From positions 399,055 through 463,054 of the forward strand of contig SUUK01000001.1 of the NCBI GenBank assembly GCA_015062535.1: a stretch of 64,000 nt of DNA, given 5' to 3'. Below are positions 21,711 through 53,846 of this stretch, piece by piece (position 1 is the stretch's first letter; each line of letters starts with the position of its first letter). Source of the DNA: Alphaproteobacteria bacterium (GTDB lineage: Bacteria; Pseudomonadota; Alphaproteobacteria; RF32; CAG-239). The notes under the pieces are model-generated. The model had not been told where the DNA came from and made no database searches. It worked only from the letters and a program-made list of their open reading frames with translations. Both the position numbers and the translations under genes were made by a program.

Positions 21711-23411
21711 ATGGAACAGAAAATAATCAGATGTGCAGTATACACTCGTAAATCAACAGAAGAAGGGTTAGACAAGGAGTTTAACACTTTAGAAGCTCAA
21801 CGAGAGGCTGGTGAAAACTATATCAAGAGCCAAAAACAACAAGGTTGGGTCTTGCTTCCACAGCATTATGATGATGGTGGTTATAGCGGTGGCACATTAA
21901 AACGTCCTGCCCTTCAAAGACTATTGTCTGATGTGCAAAATGGTAATATTGATATGATTGTTGTTTATAAAATTGACCGCTTAACCCGTTCTTTGCTAGA
22001 CTTTTCACAACTGATTAAAACGCTTGATGCACATAATTGTTCTTTTGTTTCTGTTACACAAAATTTTAACACTTGCGATTCCATGGGTAAACTGACCTTG
22101 AACATTTTATTATCGTTTGCCCAATTTGAACGAGAAGTAAGTGCTGAACGTATCCGAGACAAAATTGCCGCCACCAAGAAAAAAGGTATGTGGACTGGTG
22201 GTAGCGTTCCCCTTGGCTATGATGTTAAAAATAAAAAATTAGTAGTTAATCAGGAAGAAGCAAAAATAGTTCGCTATCTATTTGAAGAATATTTACGTTG
22301 TCGGTCAGAAGTTCAAGTGAGCAGAAACGCCAACGAAATGGGCTATCACTCTAAAGCTCGTAAAGTTCGTAATAGTCAAGGAGAAGTTGCCTTGTCTTTT
22401 AACCATGCGATGATTAATAATTTACTCCGTAATCCTATTTATATTGGAAAGATACCTTACAAAACAGAATTGTTTGATGGACTACACAAAGCGATAATTC
22501 CTATGGATTTGTGGAATCAAGTACAAGAATTAAAAAGGCTTAACCGCCGAGAACGTTTTGCCCCCTCCCGTTCTGTTAAAAATTCATTATTAAAAGGCCT
22601 TGTAGAATGTGAATGTTGCGGCACAATGACACCTACCCGCTGCAAACGAAAAAACAAATATTACGAGTATTATACTTCATCAAAAGCTGTCAAAGAAGGT
22701 CATCATTTATGTAGAACAGGAAGTGTTCCAGCAGGTGAGTTAGATAGATTTGTTTTGGATAAAGTTAGAAATGCATTCAAATCTCCAGAAATTATTCAAG
22801 AATTAGTGCATCAAATTAAACCGTACAAACCTGAGTATGGCGTAAGAGAAGTTTTTGACATTGTGCAGTCGGTTGATAAAGTTTTTGAGCATTTTGAACC
22901 GGCAACATTACAGTCAATCATAAAACAACTTGTTGATAAAGTCATTATACACAAAGGCAAAGTTGTCATTCGATTTAACAGTTTTGGCGTATCGTTGCTT
23001 GATGATAATATTAAATTTCAAAATGAGTTTAATAAAAAAACACTAGAATTTACTTATAATGTTACGTTGGCTCGTAAAAGAGGTCGAGTAAAAATAGTCA
23101 ATCCTCTTCCGTCAGAAACACCTGAAAAAGACGAGATTTTAATAAATGCCGTATCCAAAGCCTTTAAATGGCAAGATTTGTTGGAAAGAACAAATTTAAC
23201 AATTGCAGAATTAGCCCGAAGAGAAAAAATTGACAGGACATATATGGGACGCATTTTAAAACTATGTTCTCTTGCTCCCGAAATTATTAATGCAATTATA
23301 GAGGGAAAACAACCACGATTGCTTAATTTACAAGTCTTTACCAGAAACCAAATCCCTCTTTTATGGAGTGAACAACTTAAAAAATATGGTTTTGTTTACG
23401 ATTCGCACTGA
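21711..23411 (+). CDS. large serine recombinase (phage integrase, resolvase/invertase N-terminal domain + recombinase domain + zinc ribbon)
   Basis: N-terminus VYTRKSTEEG..QREA has the catalytic Ser/Arg context. It is followed by a recombinase domain and Cys clusters (CECCG..C) over 566 aa. Confidence 0.9.
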   Translation: MEQKIIRCAVYTRKSTEEGLDKEFNTLEAQREAGENYIKSQKQQGWVLLPQHYDDGGYSGGTLKRPALQRLLSDVQNGNIDMIVVYKIDRLTRSLLDFSQLIKTLDAHNCSFVSVTQNFNTCDSMGKLTLNILLSFAQFEREVSAERIRDKIAATKKKGMWTGGSVPLGYDVKNKKLVVNQEEAKIVRYLFEEYLRCRSEVQVSRNANEMGYHSKARKVRNSQGEVALSFNHAMINNLLRNPIYIGKIPYKTELFDGLHKAIIPMDLWNQVQELKRLNRRERFAPSRSVKNSLLKGLVECECCGTMTPTRCKRKNKYYEYYTSSKAVKEGHHLCRTGSVPAGELDRFVLDKVRNAFKSPEIIQELVHQIKPYKPEYGVREVFDIVQSVDKVFEHFEPATLQSIIKQLVDKVIIHKGKVVIRFNSFGVSLLDDNIKFQNEFNKKTLEFTYNVTLARKRGRVKIVNPLPSETPEKDEILINAVSKAFKWQDLLERTNLTIAELARREKIDRTYMGRILKLCSLAPEIINAIIEGKQPRLLNLQVFTRNQIPLLWSEQLKKYGFVYDSH

Positions 23412-25673: not shown

Positions 25674-26675
25674 ATGAAAAAAACAGCAGAGTTCGTTTCG
25701 CTCGGACATCCGGACAAAACGGCCGACTATATTTCCAGTTATATCCTTGACCGTATGATCGCCCAAGACCCGGACGTAAAATACGCCGTTGAGGTTATGG
25801 TCAAAGACAACACCGTCGTGTTAGGAGGCGAAATCAAAGGAAAAGTTGTCCTATCAGATGTCAAAGAGTTCGTTAAAAATGCCCTGAGAGATATCGGTTA
25901 TGATGAAAAATACGCCGAAGTTTGGGGCAAAAATGCCATAGATGTTCGTAAAATCGAAGTCATCAACCTCATCGGTCAGCAGTCAGCAGACATCAACCAA
26001 GGCGTAGTAGCCAATGGTTGGGGCGACCAAGGTGTATTTGTCGGTTACGCTTGTAAAGGTGAAGGCTTGATTAACCGAGAGCTTTATCTCGCTCGTACCC
26101 TTAACAATGCCCTTTATATTAAGGCTCGTCAAAGCAAAAACCTTGGAATTGACATTAAAACACAGATTACCTTAAACGACTACGGCCGAATTGAAACGGC
26201 TGTCGTTGCCATTCCGATGAAAGAACCGGAAGATTTAACAGATTTTATCATTGAAACACTCGGAGAAAAGCCCGACAACATCATTGTTAACGGCACCGGA
26301 AGTTTCAAATTGCATTCCTCCATCGCAGACTGCGGCATTACCGGTCGCAAATTGGCCTGCGATTTTTACTCTACTGCCTGTCCGATCGGTGGTGGCTCGC
26401 CTTGGACTAAAGACGGCAGCAAGGCAGATGTAACCCTGAACATCTATGCTCGCCGTTTAGCTCTTCGTTATTTGGAAGATAACGACGAATGCTTTGTCTA
26501 TCTCTCCTCCTGCATCGGTCGAGCCGAACTGCCCAGTGCAGTTGTTAAAACAATCAAGTCAGGTGTCGAGACAAATACCGCCATCTCGGTGGCCAAAACC
26601 CCAATTGAACTGGCCGAAGAATTGGATTTAACAAAGCCGGTTTTCGCCCGTTTATGTCGAAATGGTTTGATATAA
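25674..26675 (+). CDS. divergent, shortened S-adenosylmethionine synthetase (MetK-like) encoded by phage
   Basis: Aligns with bacterial MetK across its length. Matching segments include SLGHPDKTADYIS (GHPDK), SADINQGV, GWGDQGVFVGYA (GAGDQG), DIKTQIT, ADCGITGRKL and IGGGSPWTKDGSKADVT. The catalytic His, Asp and Lys residues are conserved. At 333 aa it has lost part of the C-terminal domain. Confidence 0.75.
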   Translation: MKKTAEFVSLGHPDKTADYISSYILDRMIAQDPDVKYAVEVMVKDNTVVLGGEIKGKVVLSDVKEFVKNALRDIGYDEKYAEVWGKNAIDVRKIEVINLIGQQSADINQGVVANGWGDQGVFVGYACKGEGLINRELYLARTLNNALYIKARQSKNLGIDIKTQITLNDYGRIETAVVAIPMKEPEDLTDFIIETLGEKPDNIIVNGTGSFKLHSSIADCGITGRKLACDFYSTACPIGGGSPWTKDGSKADVTLNIYARRLALRYLEDNDECFVYLSSCIGRAELPSAVVKTIKSGVETNTAISVAKTPIELAEELDLTKPVFARLCRNGLI

Positions 26676-27260: not shown

Positions 27261-28529
27261 ATGGAGAATTACATGGAATTTAATGAAAAATATCCTACCG
27301 AAAAGCTCATCCCATATGCCCGAAACTCTCGGACACATAACGATGAACAAATCGCCCAAATTGTGGCAAGCATTAAGGAGTTCGGTTTCACGAACCCAAT
27401 CCTGATTGGAGATGATGATGTTATAATCGCCGGTCATGGTCGCCTTATGGCCGCACAACGTCTTGGCATGACAGAGGTTCCGGTCATCAGGTTGCCTCAC
27501 TTAACCGAAACACAACGCCGGGCCTTGGTCATTGCCGACAATAAGATTGCTCTGAATGCCGGATGGGATGAAGAGATGCTCCACCTTGAAATGGAAGAAC
27601 TCTCGGAATTGAACTTTGATTTGAACCTGCTTGGGTTTAACCCTGATGAGTTGAATGAAATCCAATTATTCGGTGAGGAAAAGTCGTCCGGTAACACAGA
27701 TGATGACGAAGTTCCGGAAGCACCTGAGGAAGCCATCACAAAACGTGGCGACATTTGGCAACTGGGCCGACACCGTCTGATTTGTGGCGATACCACCATG
27801 ATAGATGACGTTAAAAAGCTAATGCAGGACGAAGTCGCCGATATGATTTTCACAGACCCTCCATATAATGTGAACTATGGTTCCACCATGAAAGACAGCA
27901 TACGCTATCATGCCGGTTCACTCGGTGGCCGAAAGATTATGAACGATAACCTTGGCGAAGGTTTTGCTCAGTTCCTGACGGATAGCTTATCCAATATGAT
28001 GATGTATTGTAAAGGTGCGGCCTATGTATGCATGAGTTCATCTGAACTGCACACCCTTTATAACTCGTTCATCAATGCCGGTGGCAAATGGTCGACCTTC
28101 ATCATTTGGAAAAAGAACACCTTTACCCTTGGCCGAGCTGACTATCAGCGACAATATGAGCCTATTCTTTACGGTTGGAATGCCGAACAAAAACATCATT
28201 GGTGTGGTGACCGGGATCAGGCAGACGTTTGGGAATACAATAAACCGGTCAAAAACGACTTACACCCGACAATGAAGCCGGTTGAACTGGTGGAAAGAGC
28301 TATAAATAACAGCTCTAAAATCGGGAATATCGTTTTAGATGGTTTCGGAGGCTCCGGCTCGACGCTGATTGCGTGCGAAAAGACGGGTCGTTCTGCCCGA
28401 TTAATTGAGCTAGATCCGAAGTTTTGTGACGTCATCATCAGGCGTTGGGAGGAATATACCGGTAACAAAGCCCAACTTATTGAAAATAAAGCAGAAATAA
28501 TCGAAAATGATGCAGAATTAACTGGATAA
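27261..28529 (+). CDS. ParB-like nuclease domain fused to beta-class N6A/N4C DNA methyltransferase
   Basis: N-terminal ParB/Srx fold (GHGRLMAAQRLG) is followed by a methyltransferase with DPPYN (motif IV) preceding LDGFGGSGST (motif I). Length is 422 aa. Confidence 0.85.
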   Translation: MENYMEFNEKYPTEKLIPYARNSRTHNDEQIAQIVASIKEFGFTNPILIGDDDVIIAGHGRLMAAQRLGMTEVPVIRLPHLTETQRRALVIADNKIALNAGWDEEMLHLEMEELSELNFDLNLLGFNPDELNEIQLFGEEKSSGNTDDDEVPEAPEEAITKRGDIWQLGRHRLICGDTTMIDDVKKLMQDEVADMIFTDPPYNVNYGSTMKDSIRYHAGSLGGRKIMNDNLGEGFAQFLTDSLSNMMMYCKGAAYVCMSSSELHTLYNSFINAGGKWSTFIIWKKNTFTLGRADYQRQYEPILYGWNAEQKHHWCGDRDQADVWEYNKPVKNDLHPTMKPVELVERAINNSSKIGNIVLDGFGGSGSTLIACEKTGRSARLIELDPKFCDVIIRRWEEYTGNKAQLIENKAEIIENDAELTG

Positions 28530-30686: not shown

Positions 30687-31046
30687 TTACTGGATTGTTT
30701 CGGGAGTTTCATCAACCTCGGGTGCGACAGCAATCAGTCGGTATCTGCGAACCCCGTCTTTCTTTTCAGACGTAAGTGTGGCTCCGACTTGTTTACTTGC
30801 CAAGACTGACATGGCCCCTCGGACGGAGTTTTCTTTCCAACCGAGTTTATCTGCCAGTTCCTTAATGGAAACGCCTTCTTCCCTTGTCAGCATGACGGCC
30901 ATCATTGCCGTTTTGAATTGCTTGGAAGTGTTTTTAATGTCCGTATCCGGTGATGTTATCTCATTGAGCGTTTGGGTCAGTTTGTTGCCCAAGTCTTCAA
31001 GGGTTATAACATCGGCTGATTTGGTTTTGTTTTTTTGTGTTGTCAT
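30687..31046 (-). CDS. DUF3489-like winged-helix protein, antisense to phage late genes
   Basis: Start assigned to the second Met (MTTQKNKTK) at 31044-31046. It is preceded by an inverted copy of the conserved promoter-leader core at 31107-31128. The protein contains VSIKELADKLGWKENSVRGAMSVL. Confidence 0.4.
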   Translation of the reverse strand: MTTQKNKTKSADVITLEDLGNKLTQTLNEITSPDTDIKNTSKQFKTAMMAVMLTREEGVSIKELADKLGWKENSVRGAMSVLASKQVGATLTSEKKDGVRRYRLIAVAPEVDETPETIQ

Positions 31047-31142
31047 CTTATAAGTCCTTTCATTGATTAGGTTTAACACAACACAATGAATGCTTGGATT
31101 TACAATTATATCCAGTTAATTGTTGCATAAAAGGGAAAATAA

Positions 31143-31658
31143 ATGGGACAAAAGGTTTCACTTCGGGAATATGCCCGAATGCGTGGAGTTCGGCTTAATG
31201 CAGTTCAGACAGCCGTTAACTCCGGTCGCATACATAAAACGCCTGATGGGAAAATTGATGTGGAGGAAGCCAACAAGGAGTGGTTCATGAACACTGACCC
31301 GGCCAAAAGCAGAAAAGCTGATCCATTATTTGAAACATCTGACGGCGGTGGCATGCCCAAAAACGGGATGTCAAACTTTCAGCAGGCAAAAACGGCAGAC
31401 ATTTATTATCGGGCTATGCTTGCCAAGGCAAAGCTCAAAATGATTACAGGAGAAACAATTGACCGCAAAAAGGCAGGATTACACGCATTCAACCTAGGCA
31501 GATCATTAAGAGATTTGTTCGTTTCGTTTCCAACAAGGTACGGAGCTCTCATTGCGGCGGCATTGGAAACAGACGAACACAAAACGGTGGTGGTGTTAGA
31601 TGAATATATCCGAAAACTCTTATCAGAAAGCAAGGACGTTATCGACCGAGAACTTTGA
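31143..31658 (+). CDS. terminase small subunit
   Basis: N-terminal HTH VSLREYARMRGVRLNAVQTAVNSGRI is typical of small terminases. The gene sits immediately upstream of terL. Confidence 0.65.
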   Translation: MGQKVSLREYARMRGVRLNAVQTAVNSGRIHKTPDGKIDVEEANKEWFMNTDPAKSRKADPLFETSDGGGMPKNGMSNFQQAKTADIYYRAMLAKAKLKMITGETIDRKKAGLHAFNLGRSLRDLFVSFPTRYGALIAAALETDEHKTVVVLDEYIRKLLSESKDVIDREL

Positions 31659-33543
31659 TGCGGCAGATTATATTGAAGGCGAGTTTTTTCGTGGTGTTGA
31701 ACCGGATTCATATATGTCGGTCTCAGACTGGGCCGATGAATATCGAGTCCTGTCCAGTAAATCGGCATCCGAACCCGGACGTTGGCGAACATCAAGAACG
31801 CCTTATTTAAGAGAGATTATGGACTGTTTATCGCCCAAGAGCCCAATACAGAAAGTTGTCTTTATGAAAGGAGCCCAAATCGGTGGAACTGAATGTGGCA
31901 ACAACTGGATCGGATATATCATGCACAAGGCTCCAGGTCCGATAATGGCGGTGTCGCCGACTGTGGAAATGGCCAAGCGTAACTCTCGTCAACGTATTGA
32001 CCCGTTGATCGAGGACTGTCCGGCGTTAAAAAATCTGGTCAGTTCGCCTCGCTCTCGGGATAAAGGTAACACAATGCTGTCAAAAGACTTTCAAGGCGGC
32101 GTACTTGTGATGACCGGTGCAAACTCTGCTGTTGGACTTCGTTCCATGCCGGCTCGATACCTGTTTATGGACGAAGTGGACGGTTACCCTCAGGACATTG
32201 ACGGCGAAGGTGACCCAATTCTTTTGGCCGAGCGAAGAACCGCAACCTTTAACAAACGCAAAAAGATATTCTTGGTGTCAACTCCGACTATCAAGGGCTT
32301 ATCAAATATCGAGCGTGAGTTTGAAACATCAGATAAACGATACTATGTCGTGCCTTGCCCTTACTGTGGCGGATTTCAAAAGTTGGAATGGTCACAGATA
32401 CGAGCTGAAGGCGATAATGTTTATTATGAGTGCGAACATTGTAATAAACTCATCGGCGAGCATTATAAAACGCAGATGCTGGCGAATGGACATTGGCAAC
32501 CGACATCAAAAAGTGACGGCATAACGGCCGGATACCATTTGTCCTCGCTTTACTCTCCAGTCGGGTGGCTATCTTGGAAAGAATGCGTTGATATTTATGA
32601 AAAGACCAAGAAGAACCCGAGTTTGATACAAGGCTTCCAAAATACCATCTTGGGTGAAACGTTTGAACAAGAAAGCGATGCACCTGAATGGCAACGGCTT
32701 TATGAAACCAGAGAAACCTACCCAATCGGGACAGTTCCTAATGGCGGCTTATTCCTTACAGCCGGTGTGGATATTCAAAAAGACCGTATCGAATGCGAGG
32801 TTGTGGCCTGGGGACGACAAAAGCAAAGTTGGTCGGTGGAATATTTTGTTCTTGACGGCGATACGGCAAAACCTGACGTATGGCGACAATTACAAAATGT
32901 GCTTCATAAGGACTACCCACATGAAAGCGGTATCACAATGCCCATTCGGGTAATGTGTGTTGACTCCGGTTACGCAACCCAAGACGTTTATAACTTCGTC
33001 AAAAACTTTAACCAAGCCGTTTGGGGTGGCTCTGGTGCAAGAGCCAGTCAGCCTCATACCGTTGTGGCCATTAAAGGTCAAAGCCGAGACACCGCAATGC
33101 TCTTGTCAACCTCTAAAGCTGACACGAAAAAGAAAGGCCTGAAGGTTTGGAACGTATCGGGTCCGGTTGTTAAGACCGAACTTTACCGGTGGTTGAAGAT
33201 GGAACGCATTGGCGAAAATGCAACAGATTTCGGACGATGCCATTTTCCTCAATACTCGGAGGAATACTTCAAACAGCTGACCGCTGAACGACAAGTCGTG
33301 AAAATTAGCAACGGCTACCCGAAACCAGTATGGGAAAAAGACCCGGCAAGACGAAACGAAGCCTTGGACTGCCGAGTTTATGCTCGTGCCGGAGCTGCGA
33401 TTTATGGCCTAGATCGATTAAGTGAAAAGGCATGGCAAGAGTTAGAAGCCGTTATTCCGGCCCAAAGCTCGGCTGTTCCGGTTCAAAAGAAAAAACGATT
33501 TATTCAAATGCAACCAACAAAGGTGGATAATCCATGGTTATAG
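31600..33543 (+). CDS. terminase large subunit, lambda gpA family
   Basis: Begins MNISENS (lambda A begins MNISNSQ). The 647-aa protein has an ATPase Walker region (FMKGAQIGGTE) and Zn-finger cysteines CPYCGG..CEHC. Confidence 0.9.
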   Translation: MNISENSYQKARTLSTENFDAADYIEGEFFRGVEPDSYMSVSDWADEYRVLSSKSASEPGRWRTSRTPYLREIMDCLSPKSPIQKVVFMKGAQIGGTECGNNWIGYIMHKAPGPIMAVSPTVEMAKRNSRQRIDPLIEDCPALKNLVSSPRSRDKGNTMLSKDFQGGVLVMTGANSAVGLRSMPARYLFMDEVDGYPQDIDGEGDPILLAERRTATFNKRKKIFLVSTPTIKGLSNIEREFETSDKRYYVVPCPYCGGFQKLEWSQIRAEGDNVYYECEHCNKLIGEHYKTQMLANGHWQPTSKSDGITAGYHLSSLYSPVGWLSWKECVDIYEKTKKNPSLIQGFQNTILGETFEQESDAPEWQRLYETRETYPIGTVPNGGLFLTAGVDIQKDRIECEVVAWGRQKQSWSVEYFVLDGDTAKPDVWRQLQNVLHKDYPHESGITMPIRVMCVDSGYATQDVYNFVKNFNQAVWGGSGARASQPHTVVAIKGQSRDTAMLLSTSKADTKKKGLKVWNVSGPVVKTELYRWLKMERIGENATDFGRCHFPQYSEEYFKQLTAERQVVKISNGYPKPVWEKDPARRNEALDCRVYARAGAAIYGLDRLSEKAWQELEAVIPAQSSAVPVQKKKRFIQMQPTKVDNPWL

Positions 33544-33773
33544 ATAAAGAAACACTTAAAATACGATTGGCCGAAGCTGAAGAAGCCTACCATAAACTGC
33601 TCATCGGAGCCAAGGAAGTTTCGGTTAATGTCGGCAATTTCGGTTCGGTAACTTATAACCAAACCTCCCGAGCGGCTTTGGAAAGTTATATCTCAAGCCT
33701 AAAATCACAAATTGCGGCAGCCGAAGGTAAAACAACATCTTCTCGCAGACGAATGATAAAGGTGGTATTTTAG
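33534..33773 (+). CDS. head-tail joining protein, gpW-like
   Basis: 79 aa, overlaps the terL stop, and lies between A and B as in lambda. Confidence 0.55.
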   Translation: MVIDKETLKIRLAEAEEAYHKLLIGAKEVSVNVGNFGSVTYNQTSRAALESYISSLKSQIAAAEGKTTSSRRRMIKVVF

Positions 33774-33837
33774 GCATTATTTTCCTGAATATCATCAATT
33801 TAGCAATAGCTTATTTTGATGAGATTCAAGGAATTTT

Positions 33838-33948
33838 ATGCAGATAATATTGAATATATTAACAAGAAAAATTTTGAAGAAAATCGGCAAAATAAGCATT
33901 GTCTACGATGTTGCAAAAAATATTCCTGATGTCGTTGTTTGTTTTTAA
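33838..33948 (+). CDS. AT-rich mini-ORF (36 aa, hydrophobic/basic peptide) in W-B intergenic cargo slot
   Basis: MQIILNILTRKILKKIGKISIVYDVAKNIPDVVVCF. About 27% GC against about 48% for the flanking genes. Confidence 0.2.
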   Translation: MQIILNILTRKILKKIGKISIVYDVAKNIPDVVVCF

Positions 33949-34038
33949 TGATTAATCAAATCATTTACAATCAAACGCCTAATCAAAAACATTTTTTGCT
34001 AACACCAAATTTGATTATATTTAGGAGAATAATGCCTC

Positions 34039-35508
34039 ATGACAGACACATCACATAAATCAGCCTCGCACTCTTTACGAGAGATTGCTTCATGGCTCCC
34101 CGGACGTGGGTCGGCGGATAGCGACTTACTTCCGGAATTAAATACAATTGTTGCCCGTTCAAGGGATTTGGCTCGTAACCATGGTGTGGCTTCGGGTGCC
34201 ATGCAAACCTTATCCGATAACATTGTCGGTACAGGGTTTCGCCTGTCGGTTAAGCCGGATTATAAAGCATTAGGCAAAACCAAAGAATGGGAAGAAGAAT
34301 GGCAAGTAAAGGTGGAAGGTCTTTGGCGATCGTGGGCAGAAACATTTAACTGCGATGCCGCCAAGAAGTTAAACTTTCATGGCCTAACGACACAAGTTTT
34401 CAAGTCCTGCCTTATCAATGGCGAGGCTTTAGCTTTGCCGTTATGGTTGAAAGACAGACCTTTTTCAACAGCCATCCAGTTGGTAGAACCTGACAGATTA
34501 TCAAACCCCAACAATGTCAGCGATACCAAAACACTCCGAGGTGGTATTGAAATTGATAAGTATGGAGCACCCATAGCCTATCACATTCAAAAAGACCATC
34601 CGGGCGATTATTGGACAGGAATTGCGTCTTGGGAGTGTATTTCGGCTTTTACTCCTTTTGGCCGAAGACGAGTTCTACACGTTCACGATATCAGCCGAAT
34701 TGGGCAAAATCGTGGAAAGCCTGTCCTAAGTGCCATTATGCCGATGTTCAAAATGCTCGATCATTATGAGCGGTCAGAACTGCAGGCCGCCATTGTGAAT
34801 GCAATGATTGCCGCATTTATTGAAACGCCGATGGATAATGAAGGCTTAAACGAACTGTTCGGTGGTTCAAGCGATGAATACTTGAATGCCAAAAAGGACT
34901 GGCAGGTCAAGTTAGAGGGTGGCTCGATTATTCCGATATTCCCCGGAGATAAGGTCGCCCCATTTACCCCGTCTCGCCCGAACTCGGCATATGGTGCTTT
35001 CGTTGAAAACTTGCTCCGACACATCGGAACCGGATTAAACATTCCGTACGAGTTGCTGTTAAAAGACTTCTCAAAGACAAATTACTCGTCCGCCCGTTCT
35101 GCCTTGTTAGAAGCTTGGCGATATTTCAACGGTCGCCGTCAATGGCTGTCCGATTACTGGGCAACACCGGTTTATGAACTATGGCTAGAAGAAGCCGTTA
35201 ATAAAGGACTGGTTGATGCTCCAGACTTTTATGAAAAACGATACGCATACACAAGATGTAAGTGGATCGGTCCTGGTCGTGGCTGGGTTGATCCGGTTAA
35301 GGAAGCCCAAGCCTGCCAAATCCGAATGGAGATAGGACTTTCAACCTTAGAGGCTGAATGTGCCGGTCAAGGCTTAGACTGGGAAGAAGTTTTAGAACAA
35401 AGAGCAAGAGAAAAAGCCAAACTTGCCGAATTAGGTTTAACATTAGGAGAAAACCATGAAAGGAACATAGAACAGGATGAAGAAAAAGAGGTATCGGGGA
35501 ATATATGA
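34039..35508 (+). CDS. portal protein, lambda gpB family
   Basis: 489 aa located after W, of lambda portal size and composition. Confidence 0.8.
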   Translation: MTDTSHKSASHSLREIASWLPGRGSADSDLLPELNTIVARSRDLARNHGVASGAMQTLSDNIVGTGFRLSVKPDYKALGKTKEWEEEWQVKVEGLWRSWAETFNCDAAKKLNFHGLTTQVFKSCLINGEALALPLWLKDRPFSTAIQLVEPDRLSNPNNVSDTKTLRGGIEIDKYGAPIAYHIQKDHPGDYWTGIASWECISAFTPFGRRRVLHVHDISRIGQNRGKPVLSAIMPMFKMLDHYERSELQAAIVNAMIAAFIETPMDNEGLNELFGGSSDEYLNAKKDWQVKLEGGSIIPIFPGDKVAPFTPSRPNSAYGAFVENLLRHIGTGLNIPYELLLKDFSKTNYSSARSALLEAWRYFNGRRQWLSDYWATPVYELWLEEAVNKGLVDAPDFYEKRYAYTRCKWIGPGRGWVDPVKEAQACQIRMEIGLSTLEAECAGQGLDWEEVLEQRAREKAKLAELGLTLGENHERNIEQDEEKEVSGNI

Positions 35509-35513
35509 TAATT

Positions 35514-36671
35514 CTATAAAGGTTCAACATCCGAAGATAATAGGTCTGTATATTTTTGATAAGTATATATTTGTCCCCATTTTTTTTCGGAATTATTTAC
35601 CAAAATCCCTAAGTCAATTAAATGATTTAAGGATTTTATGACGGTTGGTTTTGTACTTCCTATCATATTGATAATTTCAGAAACGGTAAGCATAGGTTTC
35701 TTTTGAAATGCTGAAAACACTTTCAAAGCAGATTCTGATGCTCGACCGAGAGTTTTTATCTGCTCAACATCTGCTGAAAAGATATTTTGAATATTTATAA
35801 GTGTTTTTTTAGCATCATTTGCCGTTTCAATAACACCTTCTAAAAAGAATTTAATCCAATTTTCCCAGTCTCCATCTTTACGAACACCATTGAGAGCATC
35901 ATAATACAGGGTTCTATTCTTTTTGAAGAATAAACTCAGGTATAAGAAAGGAGAATCCAGCACACCTTTTACACATAAGAAAAATGTAATTAAAAGACGA
36001 CCAAGTCTTCCATTTCCATCAAGAAATGGGTGAATTGTTTCGAACTGTACATGGATAAGAGCAGCTTTGATTAAATTTGGAATATTATCTTCATCATTCA
36101 TAAAAATTTCCAAATCTCCTAAAACAGACATGAGTTTTTCAGGAGGAACAGGCACAAATCGAGCATTACCAGGTCGTGTTCCACCAATCCAATTTTGGGA
36201 TGAACGAAATTCTCCAGGAAGTTTTGTTTTTCCCCTAGAGTTAGTAAGAAGTATTTTATGAATTTCACGAATAAGACGTAACGACAACGGAAATCCTTCT
36301 TTGATGCGTTGCAACCCATGATTTAATGCTGCCACATATGAAGATACTTCTGATGCATCTGCAACAGGAACACCTTGTGTTTGTTCTGATTCATATCTTA
36401 AAAGATCATCCAACGTTGATTGTGTCCCCTCAATTTGTGATGATAATACAGCTTCCTTACGGACATACATATAATTCAGAACAGAAGGATCTATTGTTGC
36501 TTCAACAACACCGTTAAGTTCTCCGATGGATTGATTAGCTTTTTCTAATAAAACAGATACCTCTGATAAATCAATATCAGGTTTTGGTGGTAATGGATTA
36601 GGAATAAAGGCTTGATATGTTTCAGATGTTACTGAGCATTTCACTAAAGTTCCTTGAATATCACGTTTCAT
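35514..36671 (-). CDS. Fic-family protein (class II, N-terminal inhibitory helix), cargo gene
   Basis: Canonical FIC motif HPFLDGNGRLGRLL, inhibitory motif SSQIEGT ([ST]xxxE[GN]) N-terminal, and a C-terminal winged-helix region. It is on the opposite strand between portal and prohead protease and has lower GC. Confidence 0.9.
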   Translation of the reverse strand: MKRDIQGTLVKCSVTSETYQAFIPNPLPPKPDIDLSEVSVLLEKANQSIGELNGVVEATIDPSVLNYMYVRKEAVLSSQIEGTQSTLDDLLRYESEQTQGVPVADASEVSSYVAALNHGLQRIKEGFPLSLRLIREIHKILLTNSRGKTKLPGEFRSSQNWIGGTRPGNARFVPVPPEKLMSVLGDLEIFMNDEDNIPNLIKAALIHVQFETIHPFLDGNGRLGRLLITFFLCVKGVLDSPFLYLSLFFKKNRTLYYDALNGVRKDGDWENWIKFFLEGVIETANDAKKTLINIQNIFSADVEQIKTLGRASESALKVFSAFQKKPMLTVSEIINMIGSTKPTVIKSLNHLIDLGILVNNSEKKWGQIYTYQKYTDLLSSDVEPL

Positions 36672-36810
36672 GGTATCTCCTTTGTTTTATTATAAGAGTA
36701 TTATAACCGAATAACCTTTACAAGTCAATATAAAAAGTAAAGGTTATCAATTTATCCTTTACTTTCTCAAAAAGAAAGTAAAGGTTTTTATTTAAATGAA
36801 AGGAAAAACC

Positions 36811-37923
36811 ATGAAACTATTAAACAAGACCGTTTGGGCAATAACGCCCGAGATGTTGCAGACGATGATGACGATAGCGAGGCAGAACAACAAAAGCCCT
36901 GAAGCAGTCGCCAGTCAATTAGGTAAAGAGATGAAAAACACAAACGCCGTTTCAGTAAGAGACGGCGTTGCTGTTATCAGGGTAACCGGCCCGTTGTTCA
37001 GGTATGCAAATCTGTTCACTCGCATTTGTGGAGCGACCTCTTATGAACTGTTTGCTCAGGATTTTAACAAAGCCCTTAAAGACCCAAGCGTTCAAGCCAT
37101 CTTGCTTGATGTTGACAGTCCGGGTGGCGAAGTTAACGGCTGTTCCGAAGTTGCTGATATGATTTATAAGGCTCGTGGTACAAAGCCGATTATCGCTTAT
37201 GCATCCGGTTACTGTTGCTCGGGTGCTTACTGGATCGCCTCAGCCTGTGACAAGATTTATGCAACCGATACAGCTGTCATCGGTTCAATTGGTGTCGTTT
37301 CCATTTTTGAAAAGGATGATGAAAACAAAACCATAGAGATTGTTTCATCGCAAAGTCCGAACAAACGCCCAAATGTGGAAACCGAGGAAGGTAAAGCCAA
37401 AATTCAAGAGCACGTTGATGCGTTGGCTGATGTTTTTATCAATAAAGTTGCACTTAACAGGGATATCTCCCCGAAGGAAGTTATTGAAAACTTCGGTGGT
37501 GGAGATGTGTTTGTTGGGCAAAAAGCCGTCAGTATCGGTCTGGCGGACGGCTTGTCCTCATTCGAGGAATTGGTGTCAGACCTTAACCTTATGGAGAAAT
37601 CATTCATGAATGAACAAAAACCCACCTTTTCGGCCGAGGATATTAAGATGGCCGAGCGTGAACGCATGAGCCAAGTGTTCGCTTCCGACCTTGCAAAAGG
37701 TAAAGAAGAAACTGCTCAGATGTTGCTCGCAAAAACAGATATGTCAGCTTCTGACATCTTGGCTGTTTTAGGAACTATTCCGACAGCCCAAAAATCAACT
37801 GACTTTGAAAAAGCCATGGCAAGCGTGCCAAATCCGAACATTTCGCCTTCTGTTGAAGAACAGGAAGAAACACCGGATATGGTTGCCGCTCGTATTGCAT
37901 CATATACAATGGAGGTCAAATAA
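36811..37923 (+). CDS. prohead protease / scaffold, S49 (SppA/ClpP-like) family, gpC-like
   Basis: ..VDSPGGEVNG.. with the Ser nucleophile context GYCCSGAYWIASAC. RBS GAAAGGA lies before the ATG at 36811. Confidence 0.8.
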   Translation: MKLLNKTVWAITPEMLQTMMTIARQNNKSPEAVASQLGKEMKNTNAVSVRDGVAVIRVTGPLFRYANLFTRICGATSYELFAQDFNKALKDPSVQAILLDVDSPGGEVNGCSEVADMIYKARGTKPIIAYASGYCCSGAYWIASACDKIYATDTAVIGSIGVVSIFEKDDENKTIEIVSSQSPNKRPNVETEEGKAKIQEHVDALADVFINKVALNRDISPKEVIENFGGGDVFVGQKAVSIGLADGLSSFEELVSDLNLMEKSFMNEQKPTFSAEDIKMAERERMSQVFASDLAKGKEETAQMLLAKTDMSASDILAVLGTIPTAQKSTDFEKAMASVPNPNISPSVEEQEETPDMVAARIASYTMEVK

Positions 37924-38261
37924 TGACAGTACAAGGATTTAAGGATTTAGGAACTTCAACGGTCGATAACTTACTCGCCGGTGAGTTTCCAAGAGTTGGC
38001 ATTTTAGCCACAATCACAGGTGGTTCCTATGAAAAAGGAACAGTATTGAGCAAGTCAGATGGTAAATACACTATCTGTTCAACTGAGCCCGAGGCTATTT
38101 TAGCCGAAACGGTTGATGCTTCAGCCGAAGATAAACAAGCCGTTATCTATTTAACCGGCGAATTTAACTTGTCGGCGTTGAAAGCTTCTGTTGATGTGGC
38201 AACTCTAACAGACAAACTCAGAAATAAAAGCATTTTTGTAAAATCAAACCAAGGAGCATAG
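37923..38261 (+). CDS. head decoration protein, gpD-like
   Basis: 112 aa located between protease and major capsid. Confidence 0.5.
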   Translation: MTVQGFKDLGTSTVDNLLAGEFPRVGILATITGGSYEKGTVLSKSDGKYTICSTEPEAILAETVDASAEDKQAVIYLTGEFNLSALKASVDVATLTDKLRNKSIFVKSNQGA

Positions 38262-38264
38262 ACC

Positions 38265-39293
38265 ATGGATATTTTTTCTACTCATGTCTTATCGAAGGTC
38301 GTTGAAAACTTACCAACCCCTTCATCTTTCTTATTGGATACATTCTTCCCGAATGTCCAAACCTCAGAAAAAGAGGAAATCTACTTTGATGTGACGGACA
38401 GTAAACCACGCATCACTCCTTTCGTCTCCCCCTTACTTCCTGGTAAAGTGGTCGATAATAAAGGTTACACAACCAAATCTTTCAAGCCGGCCTATGTCAA
38501 AGACAAACGCCGTTTTGATGCGAACATTCCGTTCAAGCGTGTTGCCGGAGAAATCATCGGTGGCAATTTATCAAACGCTCAACGTTATGAACGAGCACTA
38601 GCCACAACTTTACAGGACCAGTTGGAAAACCTAACACGTCGTGAGGAAGTCATGGCCGCTGAAATCTTAAGAACAGGACAAACAATTGTTTCGGGCGATG
38701 GTTATCCGTCCACGACAGTTTCATTTGGGCGTGATGCCAGTTTGACTAAGGCCTTGGTTGGTTCCAACACATGGGCCACATCTGGTGTTAAACCGCTTGA
38801 TAACCTTGAGGACTGGGCATCTGAAATTCAAAACAAGGCCGGTGTGGTTGCAAAAACAGTGGTTATGGATCCTGATGCTTGGAAAATCTTCCGTTCAAAT
38901 TCAACGGTTGAAAAGTATTTGGATTACCGCAGAGGCACCAACAACACCTTAAATGCTGACCCGATTACTCGTGGTAAAGACAGCAAGGCTCGTTATGTTG
39001 GTACTATCGGTGACTTTGATATCTATGTTTATAACGACAGCTATATCAATGATGCCGGACAAACCACAAACTTATTGCCGTCAAAAACTGTCATCCTCGG
39101 TTCTCGTGATGGTTTAGACGGAACACGTTGCTATGGTGCAATCCACGACGAAAAAGCAAACTGGACGGCTACTCGTTACTTTACCAAGTCCTGGCTGGAA
39201 GAAGATCCTTCCGTTCGTTGGTTGTTGTTACAGTCTGCTCCGCTTGTCGTACCATATCGTCCGAATGCGGTATTGTGTGCAACCATTGGCTAG
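38265..39293 (+). CDS. major capsid protein, lambda gpE family
   Basis: 342 aa at the gpE position, of gpE size. Confidence 0.75.
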   Translation: MDIFSTHVLSKVVENLPTPSSFLLDTFFPNVQTSEKEEIYFDVTDSKPRITPFVSPLLPGKVVDNKGYTTKSFKPAYVKDKRRFDANIPFKRVAGEIIGGNLSNAQRYERALATTLQDQLENLTRREEVMAAEILRTGQTIVSGDGYPSTTVSFGRDASLTKALVGSNTWATSGVKPLDNLEDWASEIQNKAGVVAKTVVMDPDAWKIFRSNSTVEKYLDYRRGTNNTLNADPITRGKDSKARYVGTIGDFDIYVYNDSYINDAGQTTNLLPSKTVILGSRDGLDGTRCYGAIHDEKANWTATRYFTKSWLEEDPSVRWLLLQSAPLVVPYRPNAVLCATIG

Positions 39294-39302
39294 GAGGTTT
39301 TC

Positions 39303-39581
39303 ATGGCAGTAAAAGTCAAGGCGTTAATTACGCTTGTGGTTGGAAAAGCTCAGGAGTTCGCTCCTGGGCAAGAGTGTGAAGTTTCTGATGAGGAAGCAAA
39401 ACGTTTGATATCTTTAGGGTTTGCCGAAAGAGTTAAAAAGGCTCCGGCAACACAAAATCCGCCACAAAAACCTCAAGTAAAACCTGAAGAAAAGCAAGGA
39501 GCAAACAATGACAATAAACCCGATGATAGCAAAAGCGGTGGACAGTCTGTTCCTGAGACTGGGGCAACCGGCGGAGTATAA
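39303..39581 (+). CDS. hypothetical head-module protein (FI-position)
   Basis: 92 aa with a Pro/Lys-rich C-terminus. Confidence 0.3.
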   Translation: MAVKVKALITLVVGKAQEFAPGQECEVSDEEAKRLISLGFAERVKKAPATQNPPQKPQVKPEEKQGANNDNKPDDSKSGGQSVPETGATGGV

Positions 39582-39807
39582 CGGTAGGACCGTTCCGATC
39601 TTAGTCTTTGCACCTGATGAAATGGGAGAAGTTGGTTTTGCGAATACCATTTCTCCCACAACTTTAATCAGAGTAAGGGTTTCTGATGCACCTGATTTGG
39701 CCGTTGGCGACACATTTGAATGTGGCGGTGCGACATATCGTGTTATGTCAGATCCAAGACGAGAACAACACCGACTTGTGTGGCGTGCGGAGGTATCATG
39801 CGACTAA
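39523..39807 (+). CDS. head-tail joining / head completion protein (FII-position)
   Basis: ..VGDTFECGGATYRVMSDP.. motif. Start assumed at MIAKAV. Confidence 0.4.
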   Translation: MIAKAVDSLFLRLGQPAEYNGRTVPILVFAPDEMGEVGFANTISPTTLIRVRVSDAPDLAVGDTFECGGATYRVMSDPRREQHRLVWRAEVSCD

Positions 39808-40373
39808 AAGCGGCACTTGAAGGGAACTTGGAAGAATATATGGAAGAACACTATCGGTCGGGAGCTGAAGCTGTCACAAACGGTATCAGGCAAGCGACCG
39901 ATGGGCTAAAAACCACGATGAGAAATCAAATAAAAGCCGCAGGTTTGGGTAATCGGTTGGCTAATACTTGGCGTGGTGATACGTATCCTAAATCTAAAAA
40001 GAGTATCTCTGCCGCAGGTGTCGTTTATACCAAAGCACCTAAAATTATGGAAGGCTTTGAATTTGCAAGTGTCATTCGCTCGCCCAATGGCTTTTGGCTT
40101 GCCGTCCCAACAACGGCAATTAAAAAAAGAGCCTACGGAAAACGGATGACACCGGCACTTTATGAAAGGTCTAAAGGTGTCCGACTTCGGTTCGTTTATC
40201 GTTCACGAGGTGCTTCGTTCTTGGTTCATGAACAACGGAAAAAGACGATCATCACCTTTATTCTTGTCCCTCAGGTCAAGATGCCCAAAATCATCAACTT
40301 TGAAACAGAAAGCAAAAAGTGGCAGGAAAAAGTCCCGTCACTCATCGTTCAGAATTGGAGTGAAGATGACTAA
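39798..40373 (+). CDS. tail completion protein, gpZ-like
   Basis: ATG at 39798 overlaps the upstream stop (ATGCGACTAA). 191 aa matches lambda Z (192 aa) in size and position. Confidence 0.4.
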   Translation: MRLKAALEGNLEEYMEEHYRSGAEAVTNGIRQATDGLKTTMRNQIKAAGLGNRLANTWRGDTYPKSKKSISAAGVVYTKAPKIMEGFEFASVIRSPNGFWLAVPTTAIKKRAYGKRMTPALYERSKGVRLRFVYRSRGASFLVHEQRKKTIITFILVPQVKMPKIINFETESKKWQEKVPSLIVQNWSEDD

Positions 40374-40791: not shown

Positions 40792-40916
40792 AACTGAACG
40801 AGGTAATTGCTTATTGACGAACGTTGTTAGTGAGGAAATTAGCAATACCGGTTCAATTACGTGGATTTTTATAAAAATTTAAAATCAAACTCTATGAAAA
40901 CGAAAGGAAATCAAAG

Positions 40917-51623: not shown

Positions 51624-53846
51624 ATGGTTTATTTTAATTATCTAACAAATCCGTTTAATCCAAACAAGGGACGGATAAGCAAAGCCTTGCCCGGAAAACA
51701 AACCGTTTTGCAAATTGTTAAAGAGCAAAAAATAGATTTAACCCGACCAACTGTCTGTTTGGTTGATGGTGTGGCAAAACTCAGAAAAGACTGGAACATA
51801 ACCCTACATCAAAAAGCTGTGGTTAGTTTTGTCGCTCTGCCGCTGGGTGGCGGTGGTAAAAGCTCAAACCCATTACAGGTTGTCCTGACGGTGGCTTTGA
51901 TTGTGGCAACTGTTTATACTGGTGGTGCGGTGGGAGCCGCTTATGGTGCCGTTTGGGGCGGTGTTGCTGCGGCGGCCGTTTCGGTCGGAGGTGGTATTTT
52001 GATTAATACCTTTGTGCCTACACCAAAAGCATCGCTTAATGGAATGACAACCTCAAGCCTAACCCAAAGCCCAACCTATTCTTTACAGGCTCAAGGTAAT
52101 CAGGCACGTCTTGGTAATCCCATTCCGGTTATTTATGGTCGGCACCTGATTTATCCGGATTTTGCCAGTCAGCCATATTATAAATACATTGATAACGAGC
52201 AATTTGTGTATCAACTCCATTGTTTGGGTCAAGGTGAATACAATGTCGAACAGATTCGTATTGAGGACACGCCGATTAGCTCATTCGAAGAAATAACCTA
52301 TCAAATCATTCCACCCGGAGGTAAAAACACGCTTTTTGAAGAAGATGTAGTGACTTCCAACGAAGTGGCCGGTCAGGAACTGTTAAAGGATACCATTTGT
52401 GGTCCGTTTGTGTTAAACCCGACCGAAAGTGTTATCAATAAAATTGAAATTGATGTAGCTTTTCAACGGGGTTGTTATTACGCAAACGACAATGGCACCA
52501 TGGCCAATAAAACCATTCAGTGGCGTATTGATGCCAGACGGATTGATGATGAAGATAAAGCGCTGGGTGATTGGGTTACTCTTGGAACGGAAAGTATTAC
52601 AAGCAATAACCACAATGCAATGTATAAAACCTATACTTATTCGGTTACAACCGGCAGATATGAGGTCAGAGCTACTCGGTTAGATGCCAAAGACACATCT
52701 TCACGTGCCGGTCATGAAATCCGGTGGGGTTCGGCCAAGGGCTATATCGTGTCAGATAAAGACTATGGAAACGTGACATTGCTTGCCATTACGATGCGAG
52801 CCACCGATAACTTGTCACAGCGTTCATCCCGTATGGTGAACTGCATTGTTACGAGGAAACTTCCGACATGGTCACCAAGTGGAGGATGGACGGCTCCGGT
52901 TGCAACCCGTTCGGTGGCTTGGGTATTAGCTGATATATTAAGAGCATCATACGGTGCCGGACTTGCCGATAAATCAATAGATCTGCAGGCTCTTTATAAC
53001 TTGGATCAGACGTGGAACAGCCGAGGCGATACCTTTAACGGCGTGTTTGATAGCAAACTGACGGTTTATGAAGCCTTATCCCGAACAGCCCGAGTTGGGC
53101 GAGCTATTCCTTTTATTCAAGGTGGTATCGTTCGTTTCGTCCGGGACGAGCCGAAAAACATACCGGTGGCACTCTTTGGACCACGAAATATTGTAAAAAA
53201 CAGCCTATCTATACAATATGTGATGCCTTCCGAGGATACCGCCGACAGCGTTTGCGTTCAGTATTTTTCGGAAAAGACTTGGAAAACGTCAGAAATAGTC
53301 GGTTCGTTTGACGGCTCAACATCCGATAAAACAGCCACCGTAGAATTGTTCGGCTGTACAAACAAAGACCAAGCTTTAAGAGAAGCAACTTATATGGCGT
53401 TGGCCAACCGATACCGAAGACGTATTGTTAATTTTACAACGGAACTGGAAGGACTGGTTCCGAGTTATGGGGATTTAATCGCCATTACTCATGATATGGC
53501 CAAATGGGGTCAAGGCGGTGAAGTGACAGAGCAAAACGGATTAACTCTAAGCCTGTCCGAACCGGTCAAGTTTGAAGAAGGTCAAACACATTATTTGGCA
53601 TTACGAAAGAAAAACGGGTCTTTATCCGGTCCGTATGTTGTGACTGCCGGTTCACTTCCGACAGAGGTTATCTTATCGGAAGAACCGGACATTGAGATCT
53701 TAACAGGCACAGATGCAGAACGAACGCATTTTGCCTTTGGAACCGCCGATAAATGGAGTGTACTTGCACGTGTAACGGGCATACATCCACGCTCCACCAA
53801 GGTAGAAATAACAGCGGTTATTGAAGATAGCCGAGTACATCAATAG
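51624..53846 (+). CDS. tail tip / host-specificity protein, fused gpI-like N-terminus + gpJ-like central fibre
   Basis: N-terminal region carries a Gly-rich hydrophobic segment (PLGGGGKSSNPL..GGAVGAAYGAVWGGVAAAAV) like lambda I. The rest is J-like. At 740 aa it is much shorter than lambda J. Confidence 0.55.
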   Translation: MVYFNYLTNPFNPNKGRISKALPGKQTVLQIVKEQKIDLTRPTVCLVDGVAKLRKDWNITLHQKAVVSFVALPLGGGGKSSNPLQVVLTVALIVATVYTGGAVGAAYGAVWGGVAAAAVSVGGGILINTFVPTPKASLNGMTTSSLTQSPTYSLQAQGNQARLGNPIPVIYGRHLIYPDFASQPYYKYIDNEQFVYQLHCLGQGEYNVEQIRIEDTPISSFEEITYQIIPPGGKNTLFEEDVVTSNEVAGQELLKDTICGPFVLNPTESVINKIEIDVAFQRGCYYANDNGTMANKTIQWRIDARRIDDEDKALGDWVTLGTESITSNNHNAMYKTYTYSVTTGRYEVRATRLDAKDTSSRAGHEIRWGSAKGYIVSDKDYGNVTLLAITMRATDNLSQRSSRMVNCIVTRKLPTWSPSGGWTAPVATRSVAWVLADILRASYGAGLADKSIDLQALYNLDQTWNSRGDTFNGVFDSKLTVYEALSRTARVGRAIPFIQGGIVRFVRDEPKNIPVALFGPRNIVKNSLSIQYVMPSEDTADSVCVQYFSEKTWKTSEIVGSFDGSTSDKTATVELFGCTNKDQALREATYMALANRYRRRIVNFTTELEGLVPSYGDLIAITHDMAKWGQGGEVTEQNGLTLSLSEPVKFEEGQTHYLALRKKNGSLSGPYVVTAGSLPTEVILSEEPDIEILTGTDAERTHFAFGTADKWSVLARVTGIHPRSTKVEITAVIEDSRVHQ

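Follow-up and report, generated by a model that had tools for sequence, protein, structure and literature searches.

We find that the junction between the portal and prohead protease genes of a prophage from an alphaproteobacterial genome is a swappable defence hotspot with conserved core flanks, and that it is occupied in the case described here by an antisense gene (35514-36671, minus strand) for an intact class II Fic protein of SoFic architecture. The prophage lies in a 64,000-nt stretch of contig SUUK01000001.1 (positions 399,055 to 463,054), which we call the window and whose own numbering we use throughout. The Fic protein is, in our judgement, probably an abortive-infection enzyme with which the prophage defends its lysogen against other phages.

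The head module of the prophage has the lambda-type order of gpA terminase, gpW, portal, S49 protease, decoration protein D and major capsid protein E. The portal gene (34039-35508, plus strand; PF05136, E=5.9e-109) flanks the slot on the left and the S49 prohead protease gene (36811-37923, plus strand, 370 aa; PF01343, E=2e-24) flanks it on the right. As a comparison set we use 100 loci with portal relatives, taken from IMG/VR and GTDB genomes and designated by L numbers. Three of these (L052-L054) match the window at 95-97% DNA identity on both sides and do not have the Fic segment. Their homology to the window ends at 35461 and restarts at 36801, with a 17-nt overlap in their own coordinates. 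Their portal and protease genes overlap by about 25 nt, and the protease ATG falls within the portal 3' end. These phages bear out two claims of a preliminary description of this stretch made from its letters alone, namely that the two head genes otherwise follow each other with no gap and that the Fic gene was inserted between them.

The segment missing from the empty-site phages is low in G+C and extends over 35462-36804 (1355 bp with one repeat copy). Its ends are marked by a perfect 12-nt direct repeat, AAAACCATGAAA, which corresponds to the protease ribosome site and ATG and whose copies are 1355 bp apart. The left copy (35450-35461, plus strand) is the former ribosome-binding site and ATG of the protease, now inside the portal 3' end, and the right copy (36805-36816, plus strand) bears the working protease start, ATG 36811. 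The inserted segment provides a new 15-residue C-terminal tail for the portal protein, the Fic gene and the hairpins of the right arm (see below), and it restores the translation signals of the protease. A mechanical list of open reading frames (ORFs) starts the protease at 36796, which is probably wrong, the extra MKGKT being a product of the duplicated ribosome-site region of the insert; ATG 36811, conserved in every relative and chosen by gene callers, is almost certainly the correct start. In distant relatives (portal identity of 73% or less), the junction gaps range from -22 to 433 nt and we identified no cargo gene in them. Since these relatives have no cargo-sized insert, we take the compact junction to be ancestral. 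The Fic gene has these marks of a moron in the Hendrix/Juhala sense: it is an extra gene between genes that are adjacent in relatives, and its base composition is deviant, with a G+C of 0.31-0.37 across the gene versus 0.44-0.49 in portal and protease, a difference that the preliminary description had already noticed.

To define the slot more broadly, we took a census of the 63 loci with at least 80% portal identity. The portal/protease junction is empty in 30 of them and filled in the other 33, which carry at least nine alternative types of cargo, most of them matching the PADLOC models for SoFic or PDC-S01. The clade to which the Fic gene of the window belongs (FicA) occurs in 10 of the 63 loci besides the window, always in antisense. 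A second clade of class II Fic proteins with a winged helix-turn-helix (wHTH) domain, FicB, is 25% identical to the first, carries SNRIEG and HPFTDGNGRMSR, and is found in sense orientation in six loci (L062, L063, L068, L071, L074 and L091; for example L062:6538-7617, plus strand), with PADLOC SoFic matches at E of about 1e-51. PDC-S01, a PADLOC candidate system with AAA_14 and DUF4143 domains, is represented by four subfamilies in 14 loci. Other cargoes are a PD-(D/E)XK_5 protein, with or without an IS200 transposase, and a 362-aa PIN_12 protein (L013:7488-8576, plus strand; G+C 0.27) that has no PADLOC match and is, by guilt of location, a candidate uncharacterised defence gene. There is also a 248-aa reverse transcriptase (RT) with an RVT_1 domain (L051:4791-5537 and L063:7908-8654, both minus strand) that gives weak matches to retron, DRT and CRISPR-associated RT models. 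The RT gene is stacked between the right-arm boxes and the protease, beside PDC-S01 or FicB, so the slot can carry two cassettes in tandem. A repeat lipoprotein is found at the same junction in L043, which has a portal identity of 78% and thus falls outside the 63. The inserts have a G+C of 0.27-0.37 throughout.

The filled slots have arm sequences in common irrespective of the cargo. The left arm consists of repeated TATCTGG(T/G)AA boxes 3' of the portal stop. In FicB loci these boxes form part of a TTGACT...TAATAT promoter embedded in TATCTGGTAA repeats; in the window, degenerate boxes related to them (GTATCGGGGAATATATGATAAT, 35491-35512, plus strand) overlap the portal stop. We also considered the boxes as sites for a phage regulator that is used elsewhere, and rejected the idea: there are 13 matches in the window versus 9.1 expected, which is no enrichment. 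The right arm, ahead of the protease, reads GTAAAGGTT...ATCCTTTACTTT(C/T)T-loop-AGAAAGTAAAGG with a T-run, followed by GAAAGGAAA...ATG, and sense-oriented cargoes have a G+C-rich terminator preceding it. In the window the right arm (36711-36794) folds into two hairpins with a joint free energy of -26 kcal/mol (z = -5.7). Hairpin 1 (36711-36747, plus strand) is the inverted repeat AACCTTTAC-N15-GTAAAGGTT around the -35 hexamer of the Fic promoter. Hairpin 2 (36756-36794, plus strand) has a 12-bp stem, CCTTTACTTTCT/AGAAAGTAAAGG, and a T-run; it is terminator-like on the plus strand and common to loci with cargo other than Fic. The four CCTTTAC/GTAAAGG boxes of this region were at first attractive as an operator for SoFic, since the first pair encloses the -35 hexamer and SoFic is known to bind to its own promoter. 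We downgraded that idea: the same boxes precede the protease in PDC-S01 loci and in loci of the other Fic clade, and because they are present alongside unrelated cargo we assign them to the right arm of the slot. The right-arm inverted repeats could act as an insulator or terminator or as a recombination arm.

The Fic ORF starts with ATG; as the preliminary description had it, it encodes 385 aa on the strand opposite to portal and protease. Pfam identifies Fic_N (E=6.5e-26) and Fic (E=6.1e-21) domains, and with such matches the ORF is not a chance one. The FIC motif, HPFLDGNGRLGRL (residues 214-226; 35994-36032, minus strand), is complete, with H214 as the catalytic histidine; residues 214-225, HPFLDGNGRLGR, satisfy the canonical pattern HxFx(D/E)GNGRxxR. 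In an alignment of 34 sequences, H214-G221 (HPFLDGNG), R222 and G224-L226 are invariant, and L223 varies. The inhibitory-helix motif SSQIEGT (residues 77-83, that is S77-SQI-E81-G82; 36423-36443, minus strand) is unchanged across the 34 aligned homologues and aligns by phmmer with SSEIEN of SoFic; E81 is predicted to be the inhibitory and deAMPylation glutamate. This (S/T)xxxE(G/N) motif and the FIC core share one chain, the motif being the more N-terminal; it lies at the C-terminal end of, and just after, a helix predicted by AlphaFold2 at residues 62-80. As a possible counterpart of the N-terminal dimerisation helix that AMPylation requires in SoFic, the model has a long helix (39-58) ahead of the inhibitory one, in a region where the sequence alignment to SoFic is weak. 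A C-terminal wHTH domain (residues about 315-358; 35598-35729, minus strand) has weak Pfam matches to HTH_5, HTH_IclR and HTH_24 (E from 4e-4 to 8e-3) and aligns with the C-terminal domain of SoFic. A secreted effector acting on a eukaryotic host was set aside, no search aimed at a signal peptide or secretion signal having been made; the protein has the layout of the SoFic-type enzymes, which are cytosolic and carry a wHTH domain that binds DNA. The complete FIC motif, the N-terminal auto-inhibitory motif and the class II assignment (in the Engel/Goepfert classification) of the preliminary description all hold, the last by virtue of an inhibitory helix in cis and the lack of a conserved neighbouring antitoxin ORF.

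Several comparisons place the protein in the SoFic family. The PADLOC SoFic profile PDLC03963 matches at E=1.4e-118, residues 18-379 covering profile positions 5-359 of 361, and PHROG 5978, whose function is listed as unknown, matches at E=2.7e-101. A phmmer search against the PDB finds the chains of Shewanella oneidensis SoFic (3EQX, 3ZCN, 9TCH and others) at E of about 1e-31 over residues 22-381. The AlphaFold2 model, built from 34 homologues (pLDDT 83, pTM 0.84), superposes by Foldseek on SoFic structures 3zcn and 3eqx with TM scores of 0.81-0.84 over about 369 columns, at a structural identity of about 24-26%, and on the Mycobacterium marinum Fic-wHTH protein 7CB8 with a TM score of 0.83. 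On the PADLOC, phmmer and AlphaFold2/Foldseek matches, we assign it as a class II Fic of SoFic architecture; it belongs to the SoFic family, but its NCBIfam score and structural identity do not make it an equivalog of the enzyme from S. oneidensis. SoFic is a very large family, with at least 8000 proteins matching at E<1e-20, and members with 65% identity are found in Verrucomicrobiota, Spirochaetia and Kiritimatiellia. SoFic-like genes with about 33% identity are already annotated as MloA in Streptococcus prophages and Brochothrix phage BL3. The protein itself is therefore not novel in kind, SoFic having been named, published, and characterised structurally and biochemically, and the novelty that the preliminary description implied for it was too high: the PADLOC match is to a named defence family that is already validated (PMC12249575; PMC11514479).

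The gene is maintained, and it moves. All 11 slot copies analysed (the window and 10 full-length loci; L029, a partial copy, is not among them) encode 385 aa with both motifs intact. Their dN/dS (ratio of nonsynonymous to synonymous substitution rates) relative to the window is 0.05-0.14, at dS values of up to 1.6, and the Fic gene is under purifying selection. In L078 the Fic is 99% identical to that of the window with a portal of only 86% and a protease of 83%; this decoupling of Fic and portal identity indicates cassette exchange. L069 and L073 have a 96% identical Fic and an 84% identical portal, and some phages with 98% portal identity carry no Fic gene. The exact Fic protein is indexed in 103 blocks of a public assembly collection. 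Among 23 contigs read from it, all six distinct places shown have Fic between portal and protease; 10 further places, similar to these, were collapsed. In the window, in 11 loci and in all places shown in that collection, the Fic genes of this clade run against the late operon. More distant relatives of the Fic, at 72-74% identity, have other surroundings: some adjoin large serine recombinases at the edges of mobile elements, one is found among methylase, KAP-NTPase and AAA_14 genes, and one (L101) is at an ordinary chromosomal site.

The Fic gene has a predicted sigma-70-type promoter of its own (36700-36728, minus strand), in which TTGACT (36728-36723) and TATAAT (36705-36700) are separated by 17 nt and match the consensus at 11 of 12 positions. 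The TTGACT-17-TAnAnT layout is retained in three diverged variants of the upstream region. As read from the sequence, a Shine-Dalgarno AAGGAG (36677-36682, minus strand) precedes ATG 36671 by 5 nt. At the other end of the gene, the Fic stop and the portal stop are 5 nt apart.

Published work on the family suggests how such a protein might act. SoFic has been described as a class II single-protein anti-phage system that is toxic via AMPylation; wild-type E. coli Sofic (EcSofic, H397) is toxic and requires the catalytic histidine and dimerisation, and in that strain a downstream protein of 47 aa, AS1, counters the toxicity (PMC12249575). A class II Fic system has been validated against coliphage T5 (PMC11514479). 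According to a 2026 preprint, S. oneidensis SoFic AMPylates EF-Tu switch I and so inhibits translation; it is constitutively a deAMPylase, for which the inhibitory glutamate is required, it AMPylates as a dimer only, and the DNA that it binds is the first 100 bp ahead of its own start codon (bioRxiv 10.64898/2026.07.09.737422).

Under the abortive-infection reading, the Fic gene would be a moron with its own promoter, an accessory gene lodged in a variable slot of a lambda-like prophage, and would be transcribed in the lysogen from its sigma-70 promoter, antisense to the silent late operon. Glu81 would restrain the enzyme, with net deAMPylase activity probable. Infection by a foreign phage would switch it to net AMPylation of an essential host protein, possibly EF-Tu at switch I as for S. 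oneidensis SoFic, and AMPylation would halt translation and abort the infection. A speculative extension is that late transcription across the full antisense of Fic might silence the gene during the prophage's own induction. The abortive-infection or superinfection-exclusion role put forward in the preliminary description stands insofar as the protein matches a published single-gene anti-phage family; for this particular gene we still infer the function, and with it the anti-phage phenotype, the expression in the lysogen, the target and the trigger. Defence is supported by location, because the same slot holds PDC-S01, FicB, PIN_12, PD-(D/E)XK and RT genes, and because relatives at 72-74% identity adjoin integrases or sit among methylase and KAP-NTPase genes.

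A number of results weigh against this reading or against parts of it. The score for the SoFic equivalog model NF046030 of NCBIfam is 165 bits versus a cut-off of 550, and identity to the characterised or crystallised SoFic proteins is only about 24-30%. With identity this low and the equivalog cut-off missed, target and regulation may differ from those of S. oneidensis SoFic, and EF-Tu as a target is an analogy only. In Streptococcus thermophilus assays, SoFic homologues protected little (PMC11514479). Terminator searches find no terminator 3' of Fic on the minus strand, so the Fic transcript should continue antisense into the portal gene. Late transcription in the other direction would need to read through the terminator-like hairpin 2 just upstream of the protease. 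The inverted repeats at the promoter are not specific to Fic and so lend no support to autoregulation through the wHTH domain.

Among the other functions that the gene might have is lysogenic conversion, in which the protein would tune host physiology or dormancy as a transcription factor, as a reversible brake on EF-Tu and translation, or as both, with no specific anti-phage role. It has in its favour that S. oneidensis SoFic is a constitutive deAMPylase that binds its own promoter and has been likened to Yersinia CccR, that the Fic of the window has the wHTH domain, and that relatives such as L101 are also found at ordinary chromosomal sites. We nevertheless regard it as rather unlikely, since the slot is otherwise filled overwhelmingly by genes of defence type, the SoFic family shows enrichment in defence contexts and is listed among the defence systems (PADLOC; PMC12249575), and we find no additional operator-like sites elsewhere in the window. 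Doc of phage P1, a phage-borne member of the Fido superfamily that targets EF-Tu, raises the possibility of a prophage-addiction toxin that kills cells after loss of the prophage, and the toxicity of wild-type EcSofic in E. coli, neutralised by the small downstream AS1, points the same way. Addiction is improbable here: in eight FicA loci (the window and seven relatives) there is no conserved small ORF downstream or upstream of Fic, a class II protein has its inhibitor in the same chain and therefore no labile antitoxin, and an integrated prophage scarcely needs such a device. A 77-aa antisense ORF at 35297-35530 was considered as an AS1-like antitoxin and discarded; it has no Pfam match and is not conserved among Fic-carrying loci, and the antisense ORFs in the portal 3' end are missing or unrelated in L078, L030, L058, L069 and L073.

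A function that benefits the phage in its lytic cycle, such as takeover of host translation or a counter to host defence, would fit the orientation of FicB, which in the same slot runs with the late operon, and the fact that some phages modify EF-Tu. We consider it very improbable for FicA, whose copies, in every case examined, run counter to the late operon and which has its own sigma-70 promoter; moreover, near-identical phages without Fic are common, so Fic is dispensable for lytic growth. That the insert is decaying or non-functional hitch-hiker DNA, as its low G+C, foreign origin and lack of an own-strand terminator might suggest, has next to no probability in our view and is contradicted by ORF and motifs intact in 11 of 11 copies and by dN/dS values near 0.05 at dS of up to 1.6.

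Going beyond the abortive-infection role of the Fic protein, one may picture the junction as an organised slot for exchangeable defence cassettes and not simply a place where insertions are tolerated, with arms that insulate and swap the cargo and with an antisense SoFic gene that is self-silenced on induction. We offer this joint picture only tentatively, and as a whole it is more doubtful than probable. The left arm would be made of repeats and sometimes a promoter, and the right arm of hairpins, a terminator and the regenerated ribosome site of the protease. The arms would insulate a constitutively expressed cargo from the late operon and would act as homology arms for cargo exchange, and silencing would result from transcriptional collision and a full-length antisense RNA during induction.

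The prophage occupies about 21.3-55 kb of the window, with a large serine recombinase (21711-23411) at one end and a J-like tail tip protein (51624-53846) at the other; the host gyrA is at 13620-16379. A megablast search of 31000-40000 against 50,697 phage records gave no match, and the phage lineage is known from metagenomes only. Its close relatives come from human, ruminant, rabbit and chicken samples, in metagenome-assembled genomes of gut Alphaproteobacteria that bear the labels Rhodospirillales, 'Azospirillum sp. 51_20' or Ca. Scatocola. The host is a gut Rhodospirillales-like alphaproteobacterium (flanking G+C about 0.45) and not, as the preliminary description supposed, one with a Rhizobiales-like background. 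The L062, L078 and L085 contigs of the prophage lineage are filed under assemblies of Holdemanella biformis, Lactobacillales and [Ruminococcus] gnavus; this Firmicutes filing probably reflects binning errors and not real hosts. The early region of the prophage encodes an S-adenosylmethionine synthetase homologue (25674-26675) and a fusion of ParB-N with an N6_N4 DNA methylase (27261-28529), for which roles in anti-restriction or self-protection are possible.

Upstream of the portal, the head operon includes the gpA-type large terminase (31600-33543) and gpW (33534-33773). Between gpW and portal is a 266-nt segment (33770-34035) with a G+C of about 0.34 and a 36-aa ORF (33838-33948). This segment is missing in L053 and L054, in which gpW abuts portal, and L052 and L012-L021 have other inserts of about 340-430 nt there, so that the gpW/portal junction looks like a second small variable slot. 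Downstream, an intergenic element of about 62-110 nt (window 40795-40856; core TTGACGAACGTTGTTAGTGAGGAAA at 40814-40838) precedes the tail gene at 40917. It is missing in L052 and L053 and present in L054 and L067, and L045 and L098 have related copies placed after the right arm of the slot and ahead of the protease start. Nine loci (L056, L065, L066, L067, L079, L084, L091, L097 and L098) carry, inserted in the portal 3' end, a cousin that shares the core (TTGACGAGCGTTGATAGCGAGGAAA). Rfam scans of the slot and of a 130-nt element in L056 gave no credible match; elements of the 40795-40856 type, which have no Rfam match, could be small mobile elements or portable late promoters.

Taken alone, the Fic protein is ordinary, one further prophage-borne member of SoFic. 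What is notable is its context, a widespread prophage lineage of uncultured gut Alphaproteobacteria with a defence hotspot at the junction of two overlapping head genes. For each cargo, the lineage offers isogenic phages that carry it and others that do not, a ready set for testing candidate defence genes (the PDC-S01 subfamilies, PIN_12 and the short RT). The same set is useful for asking how a prophage shields its own lytic cycle from a toxic abortive-infection enzyme.

Compared with known systems, the Fic of the window shares with SoFic (S. oneidensis SO_4266/MloA, 3EQX/3ZCN; EcSofic) the N-terminal (S/T)xxxE(G/N) helix, the HPFxDGNGRxxR core, the C-terminal wHTH domain, the fold and the single-gene organisation; it differs in being only about 24-30% identical, below the equivalog cut-off, and in its location in a phage head operon. 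Unlike the EcSofic-AS1 module, it has no AS1-like gene (about 47 aa) downstream. MloA of Streptococcus Javan prophages, phage 315.2 and Brochothrix BL3 is likewise a prophage-borne Fic-wHTH protein, with about 33% identity over 86-88% of the length, but its match in the Streptococcus prophages is no more than about 2.5 kb from the record end and not between portal and protease, and the hosts are Firmicutes. Doc of the P1 Doc/Phd pair is also a phage-borne toxin of the Fido superfamily, acting on EF-Tu; it is, however, a kinase whose motif is degenerate and whose antitoxin is separate, whereas the Fic of the window has a canonical AMPylase motif and an intramolecular inhibitor. The hotspots of P2 and P4 prophages resemble our slot in that core genes flank a site of mostly single-gene, low-G+C defence cargoes swapped between related prophages (PMC9122126; bioRxiv 10.1101/2022.05.12.491691). 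The P2 hotspot is at a module boundary near cos, between replication gene A and portal gene Q, whereas the slot of the window is unusual in that it splits two overlapping head-assembly genes within the late operon and has conserved arms. Mu-like Pseudomonas phages of the JBD30 group have a variable locus of anti-CRISPR and other accessory genes just upstream of the protease/scaffold gene, in which counter-defence genes lie in sense orientation with an Aca regulator. That locus is similar to ours as a variable accessory locus next to the protease in the head-morphogenesis region, and differs from it in that the slot described here holds defence-type genes and an antisense Fic.

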